Source of the DNA: Escherichia virus TH15
Length of the DNA stretch: 64,000 bases
Sequence record: MT446392.1
Reading direction: 5' to 3' (one strand)
Positions within the stretch are counted from its first letter, which is position 1. Every line of letters begins with the position of its first letter. Both the position numbers and the translations under genes were made by a program. Shown here piece after piece: positions 1 to 12,866 of the stretch. The notes under the pieces are model-generated. The model saw only the letters and a program-made list of their open reading frames with translations, ran no database searches and was not told the DNA's origin.

Positions 1-72
1 ACTGTTTGTTCTGGATTGTTGCTCAAGAACAGTACCATCCGATTTGAATAAGGCCTTATTGCTTTAAAATAT

Positions 73-798
73 GTGACTTATAATACCTCCATGAACTTAA
101 AACAATTTATTGAAGAAAATCTTTTAACTAAAAATCCGAATAGACTAAACGGAAATTTATTTAAAAATGATTTAGAATTTGCAAAGAAATTTTGGGAAAA
201 ACATCCCGAGGAAGCAAATGCCTTTAGAGCAGAAGCACTGGAATGTCAGGGAGGTAAAAGAGAACAACATCCGTATAACGAGGTCTGTTATCGTATTTTA
301 CATGATATAAAAGGGAAAGTCCTGTGTAAGTGTGGCAAGCCTGTTAATTATCATACATTCGCGACCGGTTACCATGAATTTTGTTCAGTTAAATGCCAGG
401 GTGGTGGGGTATTTGAGGAAAAACGTATTTGCTCCATGTGTGATATTAAGTATACGGCGACTAATAGAACTCAAAAATATTGTTCAGATTCTTGTTGTCA
501 AAAGGCAAGGGATGCCAAATTGCTGGACTTATCATACAGTCATTCTATAAAGATGAAAAGACGGGATGTTCTGAAGTTAATTGAGGATACTCCGTATTGT
601 GAAATTTGTAAAATAAAACTAACAAACAATTCGTCTTCTTTATCAAAAAGCACTTGGTTCAATGTTGACCATTGTCACTCGACTGGTAAAGTCCGTGGTA
701 TTTTATGTTCAAAATGCAACATAGGACTAGGAATGTTTAAAGACAATATTGCTTCATTAGAAACCGCGATAGAATACTTGAAACAAAGCAAGGAATAA
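73..798 (+). CDS. Free-standing HNH endonuclease (endonuclease VII-type HNH motif, several Cys clusters)
   Basis: C-terminal motif VDHCHSTGKVRGILCSKCNIGLG resembles the T4 endo VII HNH core; multiple CxxC pairs. Track start 73 is GTG; first ATG at 91 has no clear SD. Confidence 0.6.
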   Translation: MTYNTSMNLKQFIEENLLTKNPNRLNGNLFKNDLEFAKKFWEKHPEEANAFRAEALECQGGKREQHPYNEVCYRILHDIKGKVLCKCGKPVNYHTFATGYHEFCSVKCQGGGVFEEKRICSMCDIKYTATNRTQKYCSDSCCQKARDAKLLDLSYSHSIKMKRRDVLKLIEDTPYCEICKIKLTNNSSSLSKSTWFNVDHCHSTGKVRGILCSKCNIGLGMFKDNIASLETAIEYLKQSKE

Positions 799-804
799 TT
801 GATT

Positions 805-2637
805 ATGATTGAAAATAAAATTGAAATGCTTTCAGATAAAGACCATTGTTTGAAACGTCCGGGAATGTACATAGGAAGTGTTTCATATGAAGAATACGAA
901 AGATTTTTATTTGGTGAATATACTAAAGTATCTTATGTGGCGGGTGTATTAAAACTAGTTGATGAGATTATTGACAACTCGGTTGATGAAGCTATACGTA
1001 CAAATTTCAAATTTGCCAATAAAATTTCCGTTGATATTTCTTTGACTGATAACAAAGTTACTGTTGAAGATAATGGCCGTGGTATTCCACAAGCTGTTGT
1101 CGTAACCCCAGAAGGGGAAGAATTGCCTGGACCGGTGGCGGCATGGACGAAAACCAAAGCGGGTGGGAATTTCGGTGATGACAAAGAACGTGTGACCGGT
1201 GGCCAAAATGGTGTGGGTTCAAGTCTTACTAATATTTTTTCAATCCTTTTTACGGGGACCACATCTGACGGTAAAAATGAGCTTCGTGTAAGTTGTTCAA
1301 ATAACGCCGATAATGTATCATGGAAAACCAAACCGACCAAATCCAATGGCACCAAGGTTGAGTTTATTCCAGACTTTAGCCATTTTGAAATGAACAGTTT
1401 TGATAAAATTTATCTGGATATTACTCTTGACCGTCTGCAGACTCTTGCTGTTGTTTATCCTGATATTGAATTCAAATTCAATGGTAAAAAGGTACAAGGT
1501 CAGTTTAAAAAGTTTGCTAAACAATATGATGATGAAATCATTATCCAGGAACAAGATAATTGCTCAATTGCAATCGGTCGGTCACCTGACGGATTCAGAC
1601 ATCTGACTTACGTCAACAACATCCACACAAAAAATGGTGGTCACCATATTGAATGTGTTATGGATGAAATGTGTGATGTGTTAATCCCAGCAATTAAACG
1701 CAAGTATAAAATTGAAGTAACCAAAGCACGCGTTAAAGAATGTATTACATTGTTGATGTTTATTCGCAATATGAAAAATATGCGGTTTGATTCCCAGACT
1801 AAAGAGCGATTGACTTCTCCGGCTGGTGAAATTAAATCACATATCCAGGTTGATGGCAAAAAGTTGGCGGGCTCGCTGTTAAAAACAGAAGCTATTCTGA
1901 TGCCCATTATTGAAGCTGCATTGGCTCGTAAATTGGCCGCAGAGAAAGCTGCAGAGACTAAGGCGAATAAGAAAGCTTCGAAGGCCAAGGTACAGAAACA
2001 TATCAAGGCTAACGAATGGGGCAATGACAAGCTGGAAACGACTCTGTTCCTGACCGAAGGAGATTCTGCAACGGGGCCATTCATCAAGGTTCGTGACCGT
2101 GAATTGCAAGGCGCTTATCCGTTACGCGGTAAGTTCAAAAACACATGGGGTCTGAAAGCTATTGAAGTTATGAAAAACGCAGAAGCCTTTGATGTGTGTG
2201 CGATTACTGGATTAACGATTGGACAACCAGCCGAGAATATGAATTACCGAAATATCGCTATCATGACAGATGCAGATGTGGATGGTGTTGGTAGTATCTA
2301 TCCATCGTTATTGGCATTTTTCAGTAACTGGCCGGAGCTGTTCCATGAAGGACGTATTCGCTTTGTGAAAACTCCTGTTATTATTGCACAACTCAAAGAT
2401 AAACAAGAATGGTTCTATTCTCTCCCTGATTATGAAGAAGCTAAGGATAAACTTCCAAAGCATACCATCAGATATATCAAGGGACTGGGTTCTCTGGAAG
2501 ATTCCGAGTACAAACGAGTATTACTCGAACCAGTATTCGAAGTTGTTCAATTACCTGACAACTGGAAAGAACTGTTCGAAATGCTTTTCGGTAAAGAACC
2601 GAAGCTGCGCAAAGATTGGATGAATGCGACGCTATAA
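805..2637 (+). CDS. 39: DNA topoisomerase II large subunit (gp39), uninterrupted
   Basis: N-terminus MIENKIEMLSDKDHCLKRPGMYIGS matches T4 gp39; GyrB-like motifs throughout; AGGA SD upstream. Track start 799 is TTG, trimmed to ATG 805. Confidence 0.9.
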   Translation: MIENKIEMLSDKDHCLKRPGMYIGSVSYEEYERFLFGEYTKVSYVAGVLKLVDEIIDNSVDEAIRTNFKFANKISVDISLTDNKVTVEDNGRGIPQAVVVTPEGEELPGPVAAWTKTKAGGNFGDDKERVTGGQNGVGSSLTNIFSILFTGTTSDGKNELRVSCSNNADNVSWKTKPTKSNGTKVEFIPDFSHFEMNSFDKIYLDITLDRLQTLAVVYPDIEFKFNGKKVQGQFKKFAKQYDDEIIIQEQDNCSIAIGRSPDGFRHLTYVNNIHTKNGGHHIECVMDEMCDVLIPAIKRKYKIEVTKARVKECITLLMFIRNMKNMRFDSQTKERLTSPAGEIKSHIQVDGKKLAGSLLKTEAILMPIIEAALARKLAAEKAAETKANKKASKAKVQKHIKANEWGNDKLETTLFLTEGDSATGPFIKVRDRELQGAYPLRGKFKNTWGLKAIEVMKNAEAFDVCAITGLTIGQPAENMNYRNIAIMTDADVDGVGSIYPSLLAFFSNWPELFHEGRIRFVKTPVIIAQLKDKQEWFYSLPDYEEAKDKLPKHTIRYIKGLGSLEDSEYKRVLLEPVFEVVQLPDNWKELFEMLFGKEPKLRKDWMNATL

Positions 2638-2679
2638 ATAGATGTGGGAGAATATTCTCCCGTCTTATAGGAGAAGTCC

Positions 2680-2832
2680 ATGAAAAAGTGGTGGGTTACG
2701 TTGTCAAATGGCGAATACGGTTATCTGTGGGCCGATACTAAACCCTTGTTTGCATCCTTTGTCACCATTATGTGTGAGACCTGGGATGGTGAATACTATA
2801 CCGCATATGGGCAAGTCTATAAAGTTGAGTAA
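2680..2832 (+). CDS. Small hypothetical protein (50 aa, Trp-rich)
   Basis: ATG preceded by AGGAG; flanked upstream by a perfect 16-nt palindrome and downstream by an intrinsic terminator. Confidence 0.3.
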   Translation: MKKWWVTLSNGEYGYLWADTKPLFASFVTIMCETWDGEYYTAYGQVYKVE

Positions 2833-2834
2833 CC

Positions 2835-2859
2835 AAAGGACCTTCGGGTCCTTTTTTAT
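2835..2859 (+). terminator. Intrinsic terminator (UUCG tetraloop hairpin plus T-run)
   Basis: aaaggaccttcgggtccttttttatt. Confidence 0.7.
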
Positions 2860-2907
2860 TATGTACAGGCCACAAAAATTGTGTTAAGATGTCCTTGAGG
2901 TGAAAAT

Positions 2908-3207
2908 ATGATTATGTCTGACGGAAGTTTAGTTAATCTGCAGAATGTCGCGCGATGCATTATGGAAGCTGGTCTGAGGAAGGTACAGGAGCTCCCAGAT
3001 AGCGACAGGAAGCGAAGTTACTTGTTGGCTGTAAGAACATCAGCCATGAGCATAAAGGATGGTCAGAAGGTCCCAGAGGAGCGAATTGAAGCACTCCTTG
3101 CATTGATATACCATGACCAAGAACATAAAGCTACCATGCGTAGTATGAGAAAAATATTGCAGGAGATTGGAAATGACGAACTTCAAAGTGAATCTGGAAC
3201 TGTTTGA
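2908..3207 (+). CDS. Hypothetical early protein
   Basis: ORF with GAGG SD; positional analogue of T4 rIIA.1-region ORFs. Confidence 0.4.
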   Translation: MIMSDGSLVNLQNVARCIMEAGLRKVQELPDSDRKRSYLLAVRTSAMSIKDGQKVPEERIEALLALIYHDQEHKATMRSMRKILQEIGNDELQSESGTV

Positions 3208-3376
3208 CAAGGTTGTCCATAAAGAATACCGTGTTATCCAACGATTTTTTGATATAAGAGAAGCTGAAGAGTTTAAAGAACGCTTCAAAGAAATCCGTAT
3301 TAAAATAGCTTCAGACACCGCAACAAAGGATGAACTTCTTGAAGTTGCAGACTTATTCAAACGTAATATAAAGTGA
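3173..3376 (+). CDS. Hypothetical protein (67 aa)
   Basis: ATG at 3173 with AGGAG SD 7 nt upstream (track start 3167 is TTG); overlaps previous ORF. Confidence 0.35.
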   Translation: MTNFKVNLELFDKVVHKEYRVIQRFFDIREAEEFKERFKEIRIKIASDTATKDELLEVADLFKRNIK

Positions 3377-3383
3377 GAAAAAC

Positions 3384-5618
3384 ATGATTTTAGAAACTGA
3401 AAAAGAAACAATCCTTGGTAATGGTGCCAAGGCATCAGCATTCACAATCCAGGCATCTCCAAAGGTGTTTAAGATTCTGACCAGCGACCTTTACACAAAT
3501 AAGGTGCGTGCAGTTGTTCGTGAGCTGATTACCAATATGATTGATGCTCATATGCTCAATGGCTGTCAGGATAAATTCATTGTTCAAGCTCCTGGTGAAC
3601 TGGACCCACGCTTTGTGTGTCGTGACTTTGGCCCAGGTATGAGTGATTTCCAGATTCGTGGTGATGAAAATACCCCAGGTCTGTATAACAGTTTCTTTGC
3701 ATCATCCAAGGCTGAATCCAATGATTTTATTGGTGGCTTTGGTCTGGGTTCTAAATCTCCGTTCAGTTATACAGAGACGTTTAGCCTGATTTCGTATCAT
3801 GATGGTCAAGTTAATGGTTATGTCGCTTATATGGATGGTGATGGTCCACAGATTAAGCCAACCTTTAGCGAACCAATGAAACCTGGCGACCGCACAGGGA
3901 TTGAAGTTGTTGTCCCGGTTGATAGTAATGATTTTGGTAAGTTCCGCCACGAGATTGCATATATCATGCGCCCATTTGCTGGACTGGCTGAAGTACAAGG
4001 CGTAGGCGAAATTAATTATTTCCCGGAATTTGATGATTATTATGCTCCAGAGCGTATTAATTATAGCAGCCCAGAACGTTATGGTCTTTATGCAATTTAC
4101 GGTGGAATTGTTTATCCAATTGCCGACGGTTATACAAAGAAAACCTGGATGACTGCCAAAAATGATGTTGTCTTTATTAAGTTCCCGATGGGTTCGTTGG
4201 ATATTGCGCCTTCTCGCGAAGCATTATCACTGGATAAACGTACGGTCGCAAATATCGTTGAACGTATTGAATCCCTTGATAAGAAAGTCATGGAAGATGA
4301 TTGTAAGAAATGGCAGGAATCAGAATGTATCCGCCACACGTATCGCGAATTACAGAGTCTGAGTTATGAAGCTCGTAATTTTCTGAAAGCTCGTAATGCT
4401 GAAACGAAATTTACGAAATCGCAATTGACCTTTAACCAGATGTATGAAATGTTCGAGCTGGACAAAGACCTTATTAATGCCGGGGTTGTCTATGATATCT
4501 ATAGCACTACCCGTCTGAAACGTCTGCGTAACTCAAGCTCGAACACGAATACTGCAAGCCTGACGAGCATGTTTGGTATTCAGAATAATACCTTGAACAT
4601 TGTTATTGACGATGCTAAAGGGCGAATTGCGATGATTCGGGGCATCAGTTCAATGCTGTATGACACCAGCGCGAAAGCCAAAAAGCTCAAAGCATCTGGT
4701 AAAGTCCCGACTGTACAAGGTAGTAGCCTATTGTTCGTTGACCCAACCAGCGAAATTCAAACACGTCTGATGGTTCAACTCCAGGAACGATTTAAAGGCG
4801 ATACAGTTAATATCTATCGTACGTCTGAACTGACTGCCCTTGTAAAAGATTGGATTCCGGTTGCGGACCCGAAAGAGCGTGTTAAGTCAAAGACTCCATC
4901 GGTGATTCGTTGGACTAAAACTAATGGTCGCTGGCAGGCTGTTGAAGAATTTACATGTGCAGCTGATGCAGAGGAAATCGATGGTTATGCTGTATTCATT
5001 AACCGCAGTAGCATTTCCCCGTTGAATCAGGATTATGGCGTCACGAACTTCGGGACCCAGACATTGTGCAAACTGGCGAATCTACTGGAAATCAATGAAT
5101 TCTGCGTTATTCGTCCACAGCTTCAGAAAAAGGTTACTAAGCTGGCGCAGTGTGATTGTTTGATTGAAGCTGCAGTCAATCGTTATGTGGAATTGATTGA
5201 TGCGGTTGATGCGGACCAGTACATTGCCGCTTCAAGCCGTTCGCGTTATTATATTCCTATCCTGTCTGAATATGCAGAACTGAATTTTATGTTCAAGTAT
5301 TTTTATGCAAAAGACGTTCAGAAAGATGTGAATACTGACTATGCCGAACTAATGCAGTTCAATAAGTTCTTTTCTTATAACGCATATAACAGCGGAACGG
5401 TTGACAAGACCATGCAGGAAACTCTGGTCCTTTGTAATAAGATTTATGACGACCTGACCAAAAACGCTTCAGTAACAAGCGATAAAATGGTTTTTGAATT
5501 TGAAAAGAATCACCCGATTGTTTCACACTTTTTATATAATCGTAACGCTATGTCAACTGAACAAGTACAGAACGTTGCTCAAATCATGAAGGCCGTGGAA
5601 GCGGCCAATAAGGAATAA
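3384..5618 (+). CDS. rIIA: rIIA membrane-associated protein (lysis-inhibition / Rex exclusion target)
   Basis: 744 aa versus T4 725 aa; position between 39 and rIIB matches T4 synteny. Confidence 0.85.
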   Translation: MILETEKETILGNGAKASAFTIQASPKVFKILTSDLYTNKVRAVVRELITNMIDAHMLNGCQDKFIVQAPGELDPRFVCRDFGPGMSDFQIRGDENTPGLYNSFFASSKAESNDFIGGFGLGSKSPFSYTETFSLISYHDGQVNGYVAYMDGDGPQIKPTFSEPMKPGDRTGIEVVVPVDSNDFGKFRHEIAYIMRPFAGLAEVQGVGEINYFPEFDDYYAPERINYSSPERYGLYAIYGGIVYPIADGYTKKTWMTAKNDVVFIKFPMGSLDIAPSREALSLDKRTVANIVERIESLDKKVMEDDCKKWQESECIRHTYRELQSLSYEARNFLKARNAETKFTKSQLTFNQMYEMFELDKDLINAGVVYDIYSTTRLKRLRNSSSNTNTASLTSMFGIQNNTLNIVIDDAKGRIAMIRGISSMLYDTSAKAKKLKASGKVPTVQGSSLLFVDPTSEIQTRLMVQLQERFKGDTVNIYRTSELTALVKDWIPVADPKERVKSKTPSVIRWTKTNGRWQAVEEFTCAADAEEIDGYAVFINRSSISPLNQDYGVTNFGTQTLCKLANLLEINEFCVIRPQLQKKVTKLAQCDCLIEAAVNRYVELIDAVDADQYIAASSRSRYYIPILSEYAELNFMFKYFYAKDVQKDVNTDYAELMQFNKFFSYNAYNSGTVDKTMQETLVLCNKIYDDLTKNASVTSDKMVFEFEKNHPIVSHFLYNRNAMSTEQVQNVAQIMKAVEAANKE

Positions 5619-5619
5619 T

Positions 5620-6594
5620 ATGTTTAATATCAAATGTATGTCTAAAGCCGAACAAGCTGATGTGGTCCAGATGTATTCAACGGGCAATTATACCCAGCCT
5701 GAATTGGCAGAATATTTTGCTGTGTCCGTTGACACCATTCGCCGCGTTTTGAAAAATGATAAAGAATCAAAATTAGCTAAAACCATTTCTGCATCACTGA
5801 AAGCAGCTGTTGGTGTGGCGATTAATGCTCCGGTGACAGTAACGGTTGAAGTTCCGGTTGTTGAAGATACAATCGGTGGAAGCCGCCCGGAAATCGTATG
5901 GAACGCATCGAGTAAATTCGTTTCCATCACTGAAGGCCGTACAGTCTGGAACGCAACAAAAGACCATAAACACTTTGATGATATTATTCAGGCATTGATT
6001 GAATTCCGTTATGAAGATGCTATTGAGTATATCTCAATCAAAGCCGCAGTGCAAAAATATGTGAAAGGTGATGTGCGTATCGAAGGCGGTAGTTTGTTCT
6101 ACCAGGGAATTGAACTGCGCTCTGGTCTGGTTACTCGTATCATCGATTCAATGCAAAATGGCGAAGACTTTGAATTCTATCTGCCATTCCTTGAGAATCT
6201 CCTTGAGAACCCGAGCGAGAAAGCCGTACAGCGTTTGTTTGACTTCCTGGTTGCGAATGATATCGAAATCACCGAAGACGGTCATTTCATCGCCTGGAAA
6301 ATGGTTCGTTCAACCTACAAAGATTGTCACTCAAACACATTCGACAACAGTCCTGGTCAATATGTTAAAATGCCACGCTCTCGTGTGAATGACAATGACG
6401 AACAGACCTGTTCAACCGGGCTGCACGTTTGTTCTAAAGGTTATATCGGAAGTGGTTTTGGTCATGGTGATGGGCGCATCGTATCCTGTAAAGTTCACCC
6501 GCGTGATGTTGTAAGCATCCCGGTGGATTATAACGATTCCAAAATGAGGGTTTGTGGTTACCTGGTTCTTGACGATGTAACTGAACAATTCTAA
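5620..6594 (+). CDS. rIIB: rIIB protein
   Basis: N-terminus MFNIKCMSKAEQADVVQMYSTGNYTQPELAE and C-terminal HPRDVVSIPVDYNDSKMR closely match remembered T4 rIIB. Confidence 0.85.
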   Translation: MFNIKCMSKAEQADVVQMYSTGNYTQPELAEYFAVSVDTIRRVLKNDKESKLAKTISASLKAAVGVAINAPVTVTVEVPVVEDTIGGSRPEIVWNASSKFVSITEGRTVWNATKDHKHFDDIIQALIEFRYEDAIEYISIKAAVQKYVKGDVRIEGGSLFYQGIELRSGLVTRIIDSMQNGEDFEFYLPFLENLLENPSEKAVQRLFDFLVANDIEITEDGHFIAWKMVRSTYKDCHSNTFDNSPGQYVKMPRSRVNDNDEQTCSTGLHVCSKGYIGSGFGHGDGRIVSCKVHPRDVVSIPVDYNDSKMRVCGYLVLDDVTEQF

Positions 6595-10504: not shown

Positions 10505-11836
10505 ATGCAACTGAATAAACGTGATTTAAAAGACATTATTGACGTGGAAGCATTGTCATATGCTATCTACACTGTGGAAGGTCGTGCCATTCCAAACATG
10601 ATTGATGGTTTTAAACCAGTTCACAGATTTGTTATGGCGAGAGCATTAGACCTGGCTCGTGGTGATAAAAATAAATTCCATAAGGTTGCATCCATCGCAG
10701 GTGGCGTAGCTGATTATGGTTATCACCATGGTGAAGCATCAGCTGAAGAAGCAACTTCTGGTTTGGTCGCAACATATAAAAATGAATACCCTATGTTTGA
10801 TGGGCAAGGTAACTTTGGTTCCAGAATGGTGCCAGAAGCATCATCAGCTCGTTATGTATTCGCAAGGGTTTCAAAGAACTTTTACAACTTGTTTAAGGAT
10901 ACAGAATATGCTCCGGTCCATCCTGATGAAGAACATAAGCCTCCTGCTTTTTATCTTCCTGTTATTCCTACTGTATTACTTAACGCCACTTCTGGGATTG
11001 CTGTTGGCTTCGCTACTGATATTCTTCCTCATTCGTTCCAGGACGTCAAGGAAGCTGTTAAAGCTATCGTGGAAGGTCGTGAGCCGGTTGCTCCGAAAGT
11101 AAAATATCCAGAATTCCGTGGTGAAGTTGTTGAGCTGGAAGAGCCTGGTAAGTATGAGCTTCATGGCACGTACAAAATGACTTCCAGAACTCAAATGGAA
11201 ATTACTGAAATTCCAGTCCAATGGAACCTGGAAAAGTATACAAGTAAAATCCTGGACCCGCTGGAAGAGAAAGGTTTTATCACCTGGAAAGATAACTGCG
11301 GCGAACATGGTTTTGGGTTTAAGATTAAATTCCGTAAAGAATACAAGCTGGACGGCACTGAAGAAGAGAATCATGAGAAAATCATGAAAGACTTTGGTCT
11401 GATTGAAAAGCTCTCCCAGAACTTAACAGTGCTTAATCACAAAGGTAAACTGGCTGAATACACCAACACGCTTGACTTGATTCGCGATTTCGTTGATGTC
11501 CGTAAGACTTATGTCCAAGTGCGAATTGACAGTAAGATTAAAGAAACTGAAGCAGCATTTAAACTGGCCCGAGCGAAAGTTTTCTTTATTAAAGAAGTTA
11601 TTGATGGCAAGGTTGTTATCCAGGGTAAACCTCGTAAGAAGTTGATTGAGGAGCTCCAGGCAAGCGAAATATATGGCGATTATGCAGAGAAGTTAGTGGC
11701 GATGAACATCTACCATATGACCTCTGACGAAGCCAAGAAGCTTGCAGACGAAGCAAAGGCTAAGAAAGCTGAGCATGAGTACTGGAAGGCAACTGATGTT
11801 AAAACTGAATACCTTAATGACTTGGAGGCTCTATGA
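10505..11836 (+). CDS. 52: DNA topoisomerase II medium subunit (gp52, GyrA-like)
   Basis: 443 aa versus T4 442 aa; N-terminus with the active-site tyrosine region (SYAIYTVEGRAIPNMIDGFKPVHRFVM). Confidence 0.9.
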   Translation: MQLNKRDLKDIIDVEALSYAIYTVEGRAIPNMIDGFKPVHRFVMARALDLARGDKNKFHKVASIAGGVADYGYHHGEASAEEATSGLVATYKNEYPMFDGQGNFGSRMVPEASSARYVFARVSKNFYNLFKDTEYAPVHPDEEHKPPAFYLPVIPTVLLNATSGIAVGFATDILPHSFQDVKEAVKAIVEGREPVAPKVKYPEFRGEVVELEEPGKYELHGTYKMTSRTQMEITEIPVQWNLEKYTSKILDPLEEKGFITWKDNCGEHGFGFKIKFRKEYKLDGTEEENHEKIMKDFGLIEKLSQNLTVLNHKGKLAEYTNTLDLIRDFVDVRKTYVQVRIDSKIKETEAAFKLARAKVFFIKEVIDGKVVIQGKPRKKLIEELQASEIYGDYAEKLVAMNIYHMTSDEAKKLADEAKAKKAEHEYWKATDVKTEYLNDLEAL

Positions 11837-12257: not shown

Positions 12258-12866
12258 ATGAACAAGTTAAATTATATCGTTAAATGCTCCCAGAACGCTC
12301 TACACGAGACTGATGTCAATGCTCTGGTGTTTGTATACAAAAACAACTTTGTTCGTCCTGAGGTTGTTTTAGACCAGCAGAACACATCAATTGATAGCGT
12401 ACAGACATTGTTGAATAACAACTATGTTGAAGCTTCTGGTGATGGTTTGATGATTACAGAAAAGGGTGTTGACCTTATTCTGGATGCAGCTGAACTTTGG
12501 GCAAATGAAAATAATCCTGACCTTCTGGAAGTAAAGAAGACAAGAACAAAACGCGGTGTGACTGATGAAATGGAAGCGACTGCAGAATATATCAAAGAGC
12601 AATTGTTGTCCATTGGTATTGACTTTAAGAGCATTTCAGAAGACCGCAGTAATTTGATTGTGAAGTTCAAGCGTGTCAAGACATTAAAACAGATTGATGT
12701 GCGCCGCGATGGTCAGATTCGTGTGCATGCGTATAATACTGAACAAAAGATAGTAAAACAGTTTACAGACGTGGGATTTAGTGTTAAAGTAGGTGGATTG
12801 AATACCTACATTGACAATCATATGTCAACTGAAAACATTCAACATGTTATTAACATCTTAAAGTGA
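12258..12866 (+). CDS. motA: Middle-transcription activator MotA
   Basis: 202 aa; segments EASGDGLMITEKG and ELWANENNPDLL parallel remembered T4 MotA; position between 52 and asiA. Confidence 0.8.
   Translation: MNKLNYIVKCSQNALHETDVNALVFVYKNNFVRPEVVLDQQNTSIDSVQTLLNNNYVEASGDGLMITEKGVDLILDAAELWANENNPDLLEVKKTRTKRGVTDEMEATAEYIKEQLLSIGIDFKSISEDRSNLIVKFKRVKTLKQIDVRRDGQIRVHAYNTEQKIVKQFTDVGFSVKVGGLNTYIDNHMSTENIQHVINILK

Follow-up and report, generated by a model that had tools for sequence, protein, structure and literature searches.

The DNA analysed here is a stretch of 64,000 nucleotides from Escherichia virus TH15 (sequence record MT446392.1), hereafter the window, which carries near its beginning, on the + strand, a gene 39 coding for the large, GyrB/ParE-like subunit of topoisomerase II (positions 805-2637). 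This gene is flanked on its 5' side by a free-standing endonuclease gene and on its 3' side by a short palindrome, a small conserved ORF and a terminator-like hairpin. Its assignment draws on the ORF itself and on Pfam, PHROG, PDB and blastp matches. The ORF extends from ATG 805 to TAA 2635-2637, i.e., 610 codons with no internal stop, a run of sense codons expected by chance with a probability of about 2e-18 at the base composition of the window. A TTG codon is present in frame at 799, two codons 5' of this ATG. Since AAGGA at 790-794, 10 nt ahead of the ATG, is a plausible ribosome-binding site and since the N-terminus of the product (MIENKIEML) pairs in blastp with the one of T4 gp39 (MIKNEIKIL), we place the start of the gene at 805. 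With T4 gp39 and gp60 as tblastn queries, a single contiguous locus was retrieved in the 64-kb window (805-2232 plus 2230-2625) and no second copy of either was found there.

Regarding the protein, the GHKL ATPase domain is recognized by the Pfam model HATPase_c (36 bits for a cutoff of 26.4) and its motifs are intact, including the N-box (EIIDNSVDE, residues 54-62), DNGRGIP (89-95) and GGQNGVGSS (132-140), the latter two corresponding to the G1/G2 boxes. The DNA_gyraseB model scores 50.4 bits (cutoff 27) and the transducer has its QTK loop (QTK 331-333, within QTKERL 331-336). The Pfam Toprim model reaches only 17.2 bits, under its curated cutoff of 23.1; the Toprim region is nonetheless covered by its motifs (EGDSA, 418-422; DADVD, 489-493) and by full-length PHROG and PDB alignments, and TOPRIM_C scores 31.6 bits (cutoff 29), so that Toprim and C-terminal tail are found on the same polypeptide. 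Indeed, phrog_543 ("DNA topoisomerase II large subunit") spans residues 1-609 (E 9.8e-273), and the top PDB match, T6 gp39 (8ylu_C), aligns in one stretch, residues 1-607 to 1-604 (E 7e-302), while the engineered T4 gp39-gp60 fusion (8yo3_C) requires two stretches. The window also encodes a GyrA/ParC-like partner, a homologue of the cleavage subunit gp52 (10505-11836, + strand; 443-aa ORF; Pfam DNA_topoisoIV, E 4e-77). Gene 39 hence encodes a whole GyrB/ParE-like subunit, from GHKL ATPase and transducer to Toprim and C-terminal tail, as one polypeptide, and we infer that this subunit pairs with the gp52 homologue in a two-subunit phage type IIA topoisomerase of the T2/T6 type. From its likeness to the enzymes of T6 and T4, which have been assayed (PMC11461880), this enzyme is predicted to relax DNA in an ATP-dependent manner.

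A megablast search with positions 1-6000 of the window against 50,697 phage records identified vB_EcoM_RZ (95.3% identity) and vB_EcoM_VR26 (95.7%), two Gaprivervirus members of the Tevenvirinae, as the nearest relatives over 94-99% of the query, further members of the genus ranking after them. In VR26, the order of genes is 39.1, endonuclease VII, gene 39, three small ORFs including rIIA.1, and rIIA, and the gene 39 product (gp005, YP_009213842.1), annotated as DNA topoisomerase II large subunit, has 610 aa and 98.4% aa identity with the one of the window. That a continuous ORF of this kind could result from faulty annotation or assembly, or represent a pseudogene undergoing decay, is ruled out by this identical organisation in VR26 and in RZ (95% nucleotide identity over 60-1900), by the collinearity of T6 gp39 and of 1792 phage records with gene 39 and by the integrity of every catalytic motif; we found no point in support of such a reading, whose probability is practically nil.

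The sequence-only reading of this DNA had proposed that gene 39 covers the full subunit in a single uninterrupted ORF, with neither the gene 60 split nor the bypass element known from T4. We thus aligned its product with T4 gp39 and gp60, whose sequences were rebuilt from NC_000866. T4 gp39 1-473 aligns with residues 1-476 (70% identity) and T4 gp60 28-159 with residues 476-607 (71%), both by blastp; the two parts directly abut at residue 476, with no MobA gene between them, and the C-terminal region equivalent to gp60 is present. By blastp and multiple alignment, the 5' edge of the T4 MobA element, i.e., the 39/60 split point, corresponds to the Ala476-Glu477 codons (2230-2235, + strand), between nucleotides 2232 and 2233. 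The take-off codon of T4 gene 60, Gly46, corresponds in the alignment to Gly494 (GGT, 2284-2286), and the point where the 50-nt gap is inserted in T4 lies between nucleotides 2286 and 2287, immediately preceded by the Toprim DxDxD motif. In the window, Gly494 and Val495 (GTT) are contiguous at 2284-2289 (+ strand), with neither a GGA-UAG take-off nor a 50-nt coding gap. Likewise, there is no division into ORF1 and ORF2 near residues 466-473, where the ORF is continuous, and no frameshift. Neither the last 43 residues of T4 gp39 (474-516) nor the first 27 of gp60, tails which Manning & Atkins (bioRxiv 10.1101/2022.08.31.505936) named the CTE and the unique part of the NTE, have a match in the window by blastp or tblastn. 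These comparisons bear out the proposal on every point. In T4, the gene is interrupted within its Toprim domain by the MobA homing-endonuclease element, which also introduced the 50-nt bypass gap; in the lineage of the window, this element would never have become fixed in gene 39, and with a sequence passing uninterrupted through both T4 junctions, translation would be collinear and free of recoding.

An unsplit gene could also be a derived state rather than an ancestral one, if a MobA element had once split gene 39 and had later been excised. Such a hit-and-run history has a precedent in an Aeromonas phage clade (Manning & Atkins, bioRxiv 10.1101/2022.08.31.505936), and gene 39 of the present lineage appears to have undergone endonuclease-associated recombination at another part (see below). 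However, the genes with this history retain at the site an insertion homologous to CTE/NTE (Manning & Atkins, bioRxiv 10.1101/2022.08.31.505936), whereas in the window both T4 tails are without a match and the alignment of residues 470-505 with the unsplit gp39 of RB27 or with VR20 reveals no indel and not a single extra residue. Moreover, the 3' segment bearing the site is 91-96% identical among all Gaprivervirus genomes examined, all of which are unsplit. Such a scar is hence ruled out, and we consider the re-fusion history largely refuted and very improbable. In the window, the site corresponding to the T4-clade MobA target is identical at 42 of 57 nt to the parental site of RB27. Taking together the continuity of the ORF, its domain content, its collinear alignment to T6 gp39 and to the two T4 proteins and the absence of the cassette, we put at about 97% the probability that this Gaprivervirus-type T4-like coliphage has at 805-2637 a conventional, intact gene 39 in which the MobA element was never fixed; no observation speaks against this reading.

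It is well documented that such a gene is the norm in T4-like phages, and its finding here is not a discovery. A probe of 91 aa that covers the two T4 junctions (residues 440-530 of the window product) matched 1866 phage records, and the match is contiguous in 1792 of them (96%); it is broken in, among others, T4, Acinetobacter phage fHyAci03 and Shewanella phage Thanatos-1. Conversely, among 499 records (Tequatrovirus-level) with a match to the T4 mobA-gene 60 segment, only 41 have 80% or more of it, the remaining matches listed covering only the part 3' of the bypass (query 985-1320), inside continuous genes. This is in line with previous work in which the MobA element was mapped in six clades, having been inserted repeatedly into otherwise continuous genes, each clade having "parental" genomes 96-99% identical but devoid of the element (Manning & Atkins, bioRxiv 10.1101/2022.08.31.505936). 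The same authors credit Bonocora et al. 2011 with showing that MobA drives the cassette into T2, and a structural paper of 2024 treats the gp39 of T2 and T6 as the two-subunit norm (PMC11461880). Studies explaining the T4 39/60 split had thus taken the unsplit gene as their reference state (Bonocora et al. 2011, as cited by Manning & Atkins; the T6 structure of 2024).

The interpretation first given to this gene is therefore supported but already known. Retention of the ancestral state is consistent with the findings of Manning & Atkins (bioRxiv 10.1101/2022.08.31.505936), but with 96% of the records in this state it is the norm and not a special retention; besides, gene 39 is not evolutionarily untouched, as the 5' 60% of the gene is a foreign allele lying beside an endonuclease gene. 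Its presentation as a useful comparator for the origin of the T4 insertion was overstated: the protein is only about 70% identical to the one of T4, parental genomes with 96-99% identity to T4 are already available, and T2, T6 and RB27, which are far nearer T4, are better comparators that have already served as such. The present copy adds only a distant unsplit example at this level of identity, which matters little, and a nearly identical gene, the one of VR26, was already deposited and annotated.

Downstream of gene 39, the spacer before the next ORF contains a perfect 16-nt palindrome, GGGAGAATATTCTCCC (2646-2661), which is its own reverse complement and precedes an ORF beginning only after the gene 39 stop, at 2680, exactly as had been read from the sequence alone. 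It can form a hairpin of 6 bp with a 4-nt loop (about -10 kcal/mol) and is invariant in seven Gaprivervirus genomes, with flanks that vary. Within its 76-nt context, the fold has a z-score of -1.58, not significantly better than shuffled sequences, and no T-run follows it on the + strand; on both grounds we rejected it as a canonical terminator. It is probably an RNA-level element involved in stability, in processing or in tuning the translation of the next ORF. A repeat search with a minimum length of 10 returned no inverted repeat at 2500-2950; it missed the palindrome because the arms of the latter are only 8 nt long, whereas reading the letters directly and scanning for terminators both confirmed it. 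The ORF that follows (2680-2832, + strand) encodes a conserved 50-aa product (phrog_4369, E 3.9e-29) which is annotated in VR26, VR7 and VR20 and exists as two allele types. The terminator-like site of the region is located 3' of this ORF: a terminator scan identified at 2835-2854 (+ strand) a hairpin resembling an intrinsic terminator, with a UUCG loop (-11.5 kcal/mol), followed by the T-run TTTTTATT.

While the 3' part of gene 39 is typical of its genus, the 5' part is not. From 805 to about 1900 (+ strand), a segment encoding the ATPase and transducer (residues 1-365), the window is only about 69% identical overall to the allele of VR20, MN01, VR7 and phage 212 (56-77% per 100-nt bin), and is as far from this allele as from the Tequatrovirus RB27. 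From about 1900 to 2637, identity to the other Gaprivervirus alleles is 91-96%. The same contrast is observed at the protein level: residues 1-365 have 72% identity to VR20 and 84% to the Dhakavirus Bp7, and residues 366-610 are 97-99% identical to all Gaprivervirus proteins compared and 74% identical to Bp7. Identity to VR20 rises from 65% in bin 1801-1900 to 95% in bin 1901-2000, which puts the breakpoint within the stretch coding for an invariant linker, AILMPIIEAALARKLAAEKAAETKA (1891-1965, + strand), a peptide identical in T4. An allele of the window type at more than 95% is found in VR26 and RZ only, and outside these two we found no donor with more than 80% identity; the best full-length gene 39 matches in another genus, Dhakavirus Bp7 and IME281, reach about 77% nucleotide identity, while the P479 match covers 61% of the query at 79.5%. 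On these identity profiles, gene 39 is a chimera whose 5' 60%, approximately, is a foreign allele. As the site of the T4 MobA insertion sits in the 3' segment typical of Gaprivervirus, this mosaic leaves unaffected the conclusion that the gene is unsplit.

P479 exhibits a related but distinct pattern. Compared with VR20, its breakpoint is at the same place as that of the window. An extra internal breakpoint is found near nt 1480, beyond which P479 matches the window allele, the initial ~680 nt of its gene 39 being of a different allele. This double breakpoint suggests successive replacements.

The 5' neighbour of gene 39 is a free-standing ORF (73-798, + strand) encoding an EndoVII-type HNH endonuclease, as supported by Pfam Endonuclease_7 (E 4.8e-18) and by PHROG endonuclease VII families. 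Its true start is likely ATG 91 (235 aa) and its end lies 6 nt before the ATG of gene 39. The CxxC...DHCH...CxxCN motif is intact, as in a homing-type nuclease domain (His-Me/HNH). We considered whether this ORF could be a relocated MobA and rejected this possibility, since blastp detected no similarity to the intact MobA of phage PD112. The content of the slot between 39.1 and gene 39 varies considerably. The HNH ORF is carried by the window, VR26 and RZ, while VR7 has an HNH homologue of 49% identity, P479 a GIY-YIG-type ORF and MN01 an unrelated 134-aa ORF, and in VR20 and phage 212 the slot is empty; among close relatives, the HNH ORF is hence either present or absent at a fixed intergenic site. 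In Bp7 (Dhakavirus), TG1 (Tegunavirus) and Nispero (Jiaodavirus), a third endonuclease-like ORF, with 63% mutual identity, occupies the slot, which brings to three the unrelated endonuclease families at this position, across four genera. A literature search for earlier comment on the gene 39 locus of VR7 or VR26 returned nothing relevant.

The proximity of this endonuclease gene and of the divergent segment raises the possibility that gene 39, though continuous, had its 5' 1.1 kb imported together with the EndoVII-type HNH gene by homing-driven gene conversion. With VR26 used as a proxy for the window, the comparison with VR20 of the region from 39.1 to gene 39 argues for such an import: in 39.1, the 100 nt just 5' of the insertion are 98% identical, whereas 3' of the HNH ORF identity is 56-82% along some 1.1 kb of gene 39 before a return to 88-97%, so that the divergent block is one-sided, on the gene 39 side only. 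The window-type allele and the HNH gene co-occur in their sole other carriers, VR26 and RZ, and P479 combines a GIY-YIG gene in the slot with a differing allele and the same breakpoint relative to VR20. The diversity of unrelated endonuclease families occupying the slot and the affinity of the N-terminal part for Bp7, set against a C-terminus of Gaprivervirus type, point in the same direction. However, VR7 has an HNH homologue in the slot together with the common gene 39 allele (83-100% identical to VR20), and the presence of an endonuclease is therefore not always accompanied by allele replacement. Moreover, the genomes with the same arrangement are few (the window, VR26 and RZ), the search for a donor above 80% identity was negative, and ordinary homologous recombination during co-infection, with a crossover in the conserved linker, would give the same pattern. 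We thus put forward the homing-driven import as a tentative reading with somewhat less than an even chance of being correct. It is compatible with gene 39 being intact and qualifies the word "ancestral".

A further step, which we hold with a little less assurance still, is that the HNH ORF may constitute a mobile unit with the 5' ~1.1 kb of gene 39. The nuclease would cut the common Gaprivervirus allele of gene 39; repair would then copy in both the nuclease gene and an ATPase/transducer segment that is resistant and Dhakavirus-like, and conversion would resolve in the invariant linker-coding stretch. If this proved true, homing endonucleases would attack both ends of gene 39 in different T4-like lineages, MobA acting on the Toprim domain and three or more unrelated endonuclease families on the 5' end, and in P479 one endonuclease cassette would have overwritten another. 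The 5' end of gene 39 joins the recurrent landing sites of homing endonucleases in Tevenvirinae. The value of the locus, which is modest, lies there and in its being a clear case of a chimeric essential gene whose foreign half adjoins a free-standing endonuclease gene.

Compared with the free-standing seg/mob homing endonucleases of T4-like phages (Edgell et al., Virol J 2010, PMC2988022), the HNH ORF differs by being of the EndoVII type (PF02945), with no detectable similarity to MobA. Like them, it is promoter-less and located between conserved genes, its presence varies in close relatives and the adjoining gene segment is divergent. Regarding the subunit itself, T4 gp39 and gp60 are homologous to the gene 39 product over gp39 1-473 and gp60 28-159 (70-71%), with a DxDxD motif at a like position; the split, the 43-aa CTE, the 27-aa unique head of the NTE, mobA, the GGA-UAG take-off and the 50-nt gap belong to T4 and are absent from the window. 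With T2, T6 and RB27, the likeness extends to the organisation, as their gp39 is likewise one polypeptide with a gp52 partner (605 aa in RB27), about 72% identical to the gene 39 product, the T6 protein (PDB 8ylu) being collinear with it over residues 1-607. Finally, VR26 and RZ differ from the window by about 4-5% of DNA divergence, by a hairpin after gene 39.1 which is partly deleted in the window and, for VR26, by a long start of the HNH ORF which is closed there by a stop. Their neighbourhood is otherwise that of the window, with the EndoVII ORF, gene 39, the 50-aa ORF, a DUF7367 ORF, rIIA.1 and rIIA, and the three phages have in common a gene 39 of the same length (610 aa) with the same chimeric 5' allele.

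Gene 39 of the window (805-2637, + strand), which encodes the topoisomerase II large subunit, is chimeric, with segments 805-1900 and 1900-2637 differing markedly in their relationships. The 5' 1.1 kb (805-1900) shares only ~69% nucleotide and 72% amino-acid identity with the other Gaprivervirus alleles vs 84% amino-acid identity with Dhakavirus Bp7, while the 3' part (1900-2637) is 91-96% identical to Gaprivervirus at the nucleotide level and 97-99% at the protein level. The mosaic breakpoint falls within 1891-1965, a stretch coding for an invariant linker, and comparison of P479 with VR20 places a gene 39 breakpoint at the same position.

Regarding the region 3' of gene 39, positions 2646-2661 form a perfect palindrome, GGGAGAATATTCTCCC, which is unchanged across 7 Gaprivervirus genomes while its flanking bases differ. 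A canonical terminator was considered for this palindrome and rejected because it has no T-run. Further downstream, a 50-aa ORF (phrog_4369) and its 3' flank (2680-2900) occur as two allele types with ~69-73% nucleotide identity between them, one found in the window, VR26, MN01 and P479 and the other in VR20, VR7 and phage 212. This stretch is a second small mosaic patch, whose distribution does not track the gene 39 5' allele.

A DUF7367 ORF of 99 aa (2908-3207, +) follows, and the start of a 69-aa rIIA.1-like ORF (PF24210; 3167-3376, +) overlaps it by 41 nt, both preceding rIIA (3384-5618). In T4, by contrast, no DUF7367 gene is annotated at the corresponding position. Also downstream of gene 39 lie homologues of gp52 (DNA_topoisoIV; 10505-11836, +) and MotA (MotA_activ and MotCF; 12258-12866, +), a placement consistent with T4-like synteny, the standard map being read on the reverse strand.

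The slot separating genes 39.1 and 39 holds an EndoVII-type HNH endonuclease ORF (73-798, +), which stops 6 nt upstream of the gene 39 ATG. In VR26 (locus L002, 2040-2075), gene 39.1 is followed by the hairpin GGCCTTCGGGCC and a T-run, whereas in the window (40-70) this hairpin is partially deleted and reads AAGGCCTTATTGC. The VR26 endonuclease is annotated from a long ATG start that a TAA shuts in the window, leaving GTG 73 or ATG 91 as candidates, of which ATG 91 is the probable start.

VR26 and RZ also carry a copy of this ORF, and VR7 a 49% homologue; VR20 and phage 212 lack it; in P479 its place is taken by a GIY-YIG ORF, in MN01 by an unrelated one. A blastp comparison with the intact MobA of phage PD112, MobA being the HNH endonuclease of the element splitting T4 gene 39/60, found no similarity. 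Endonuclease-like ORFs, annotated as HNH or GIY-YIG and sharing ~63% mutual identity, lie directly upstream of gene 39 in Bp7 (L010, 1331-2011), TG1 (L011, 1328-2011) and Nispero (L012, 1327-2019). These phages belong to different Tevenvirinae genera, yet the ORF occupies one shared position; free-standing endonuclease genes therefore seem to have landed repeatedly at the 5' end of gene 39.
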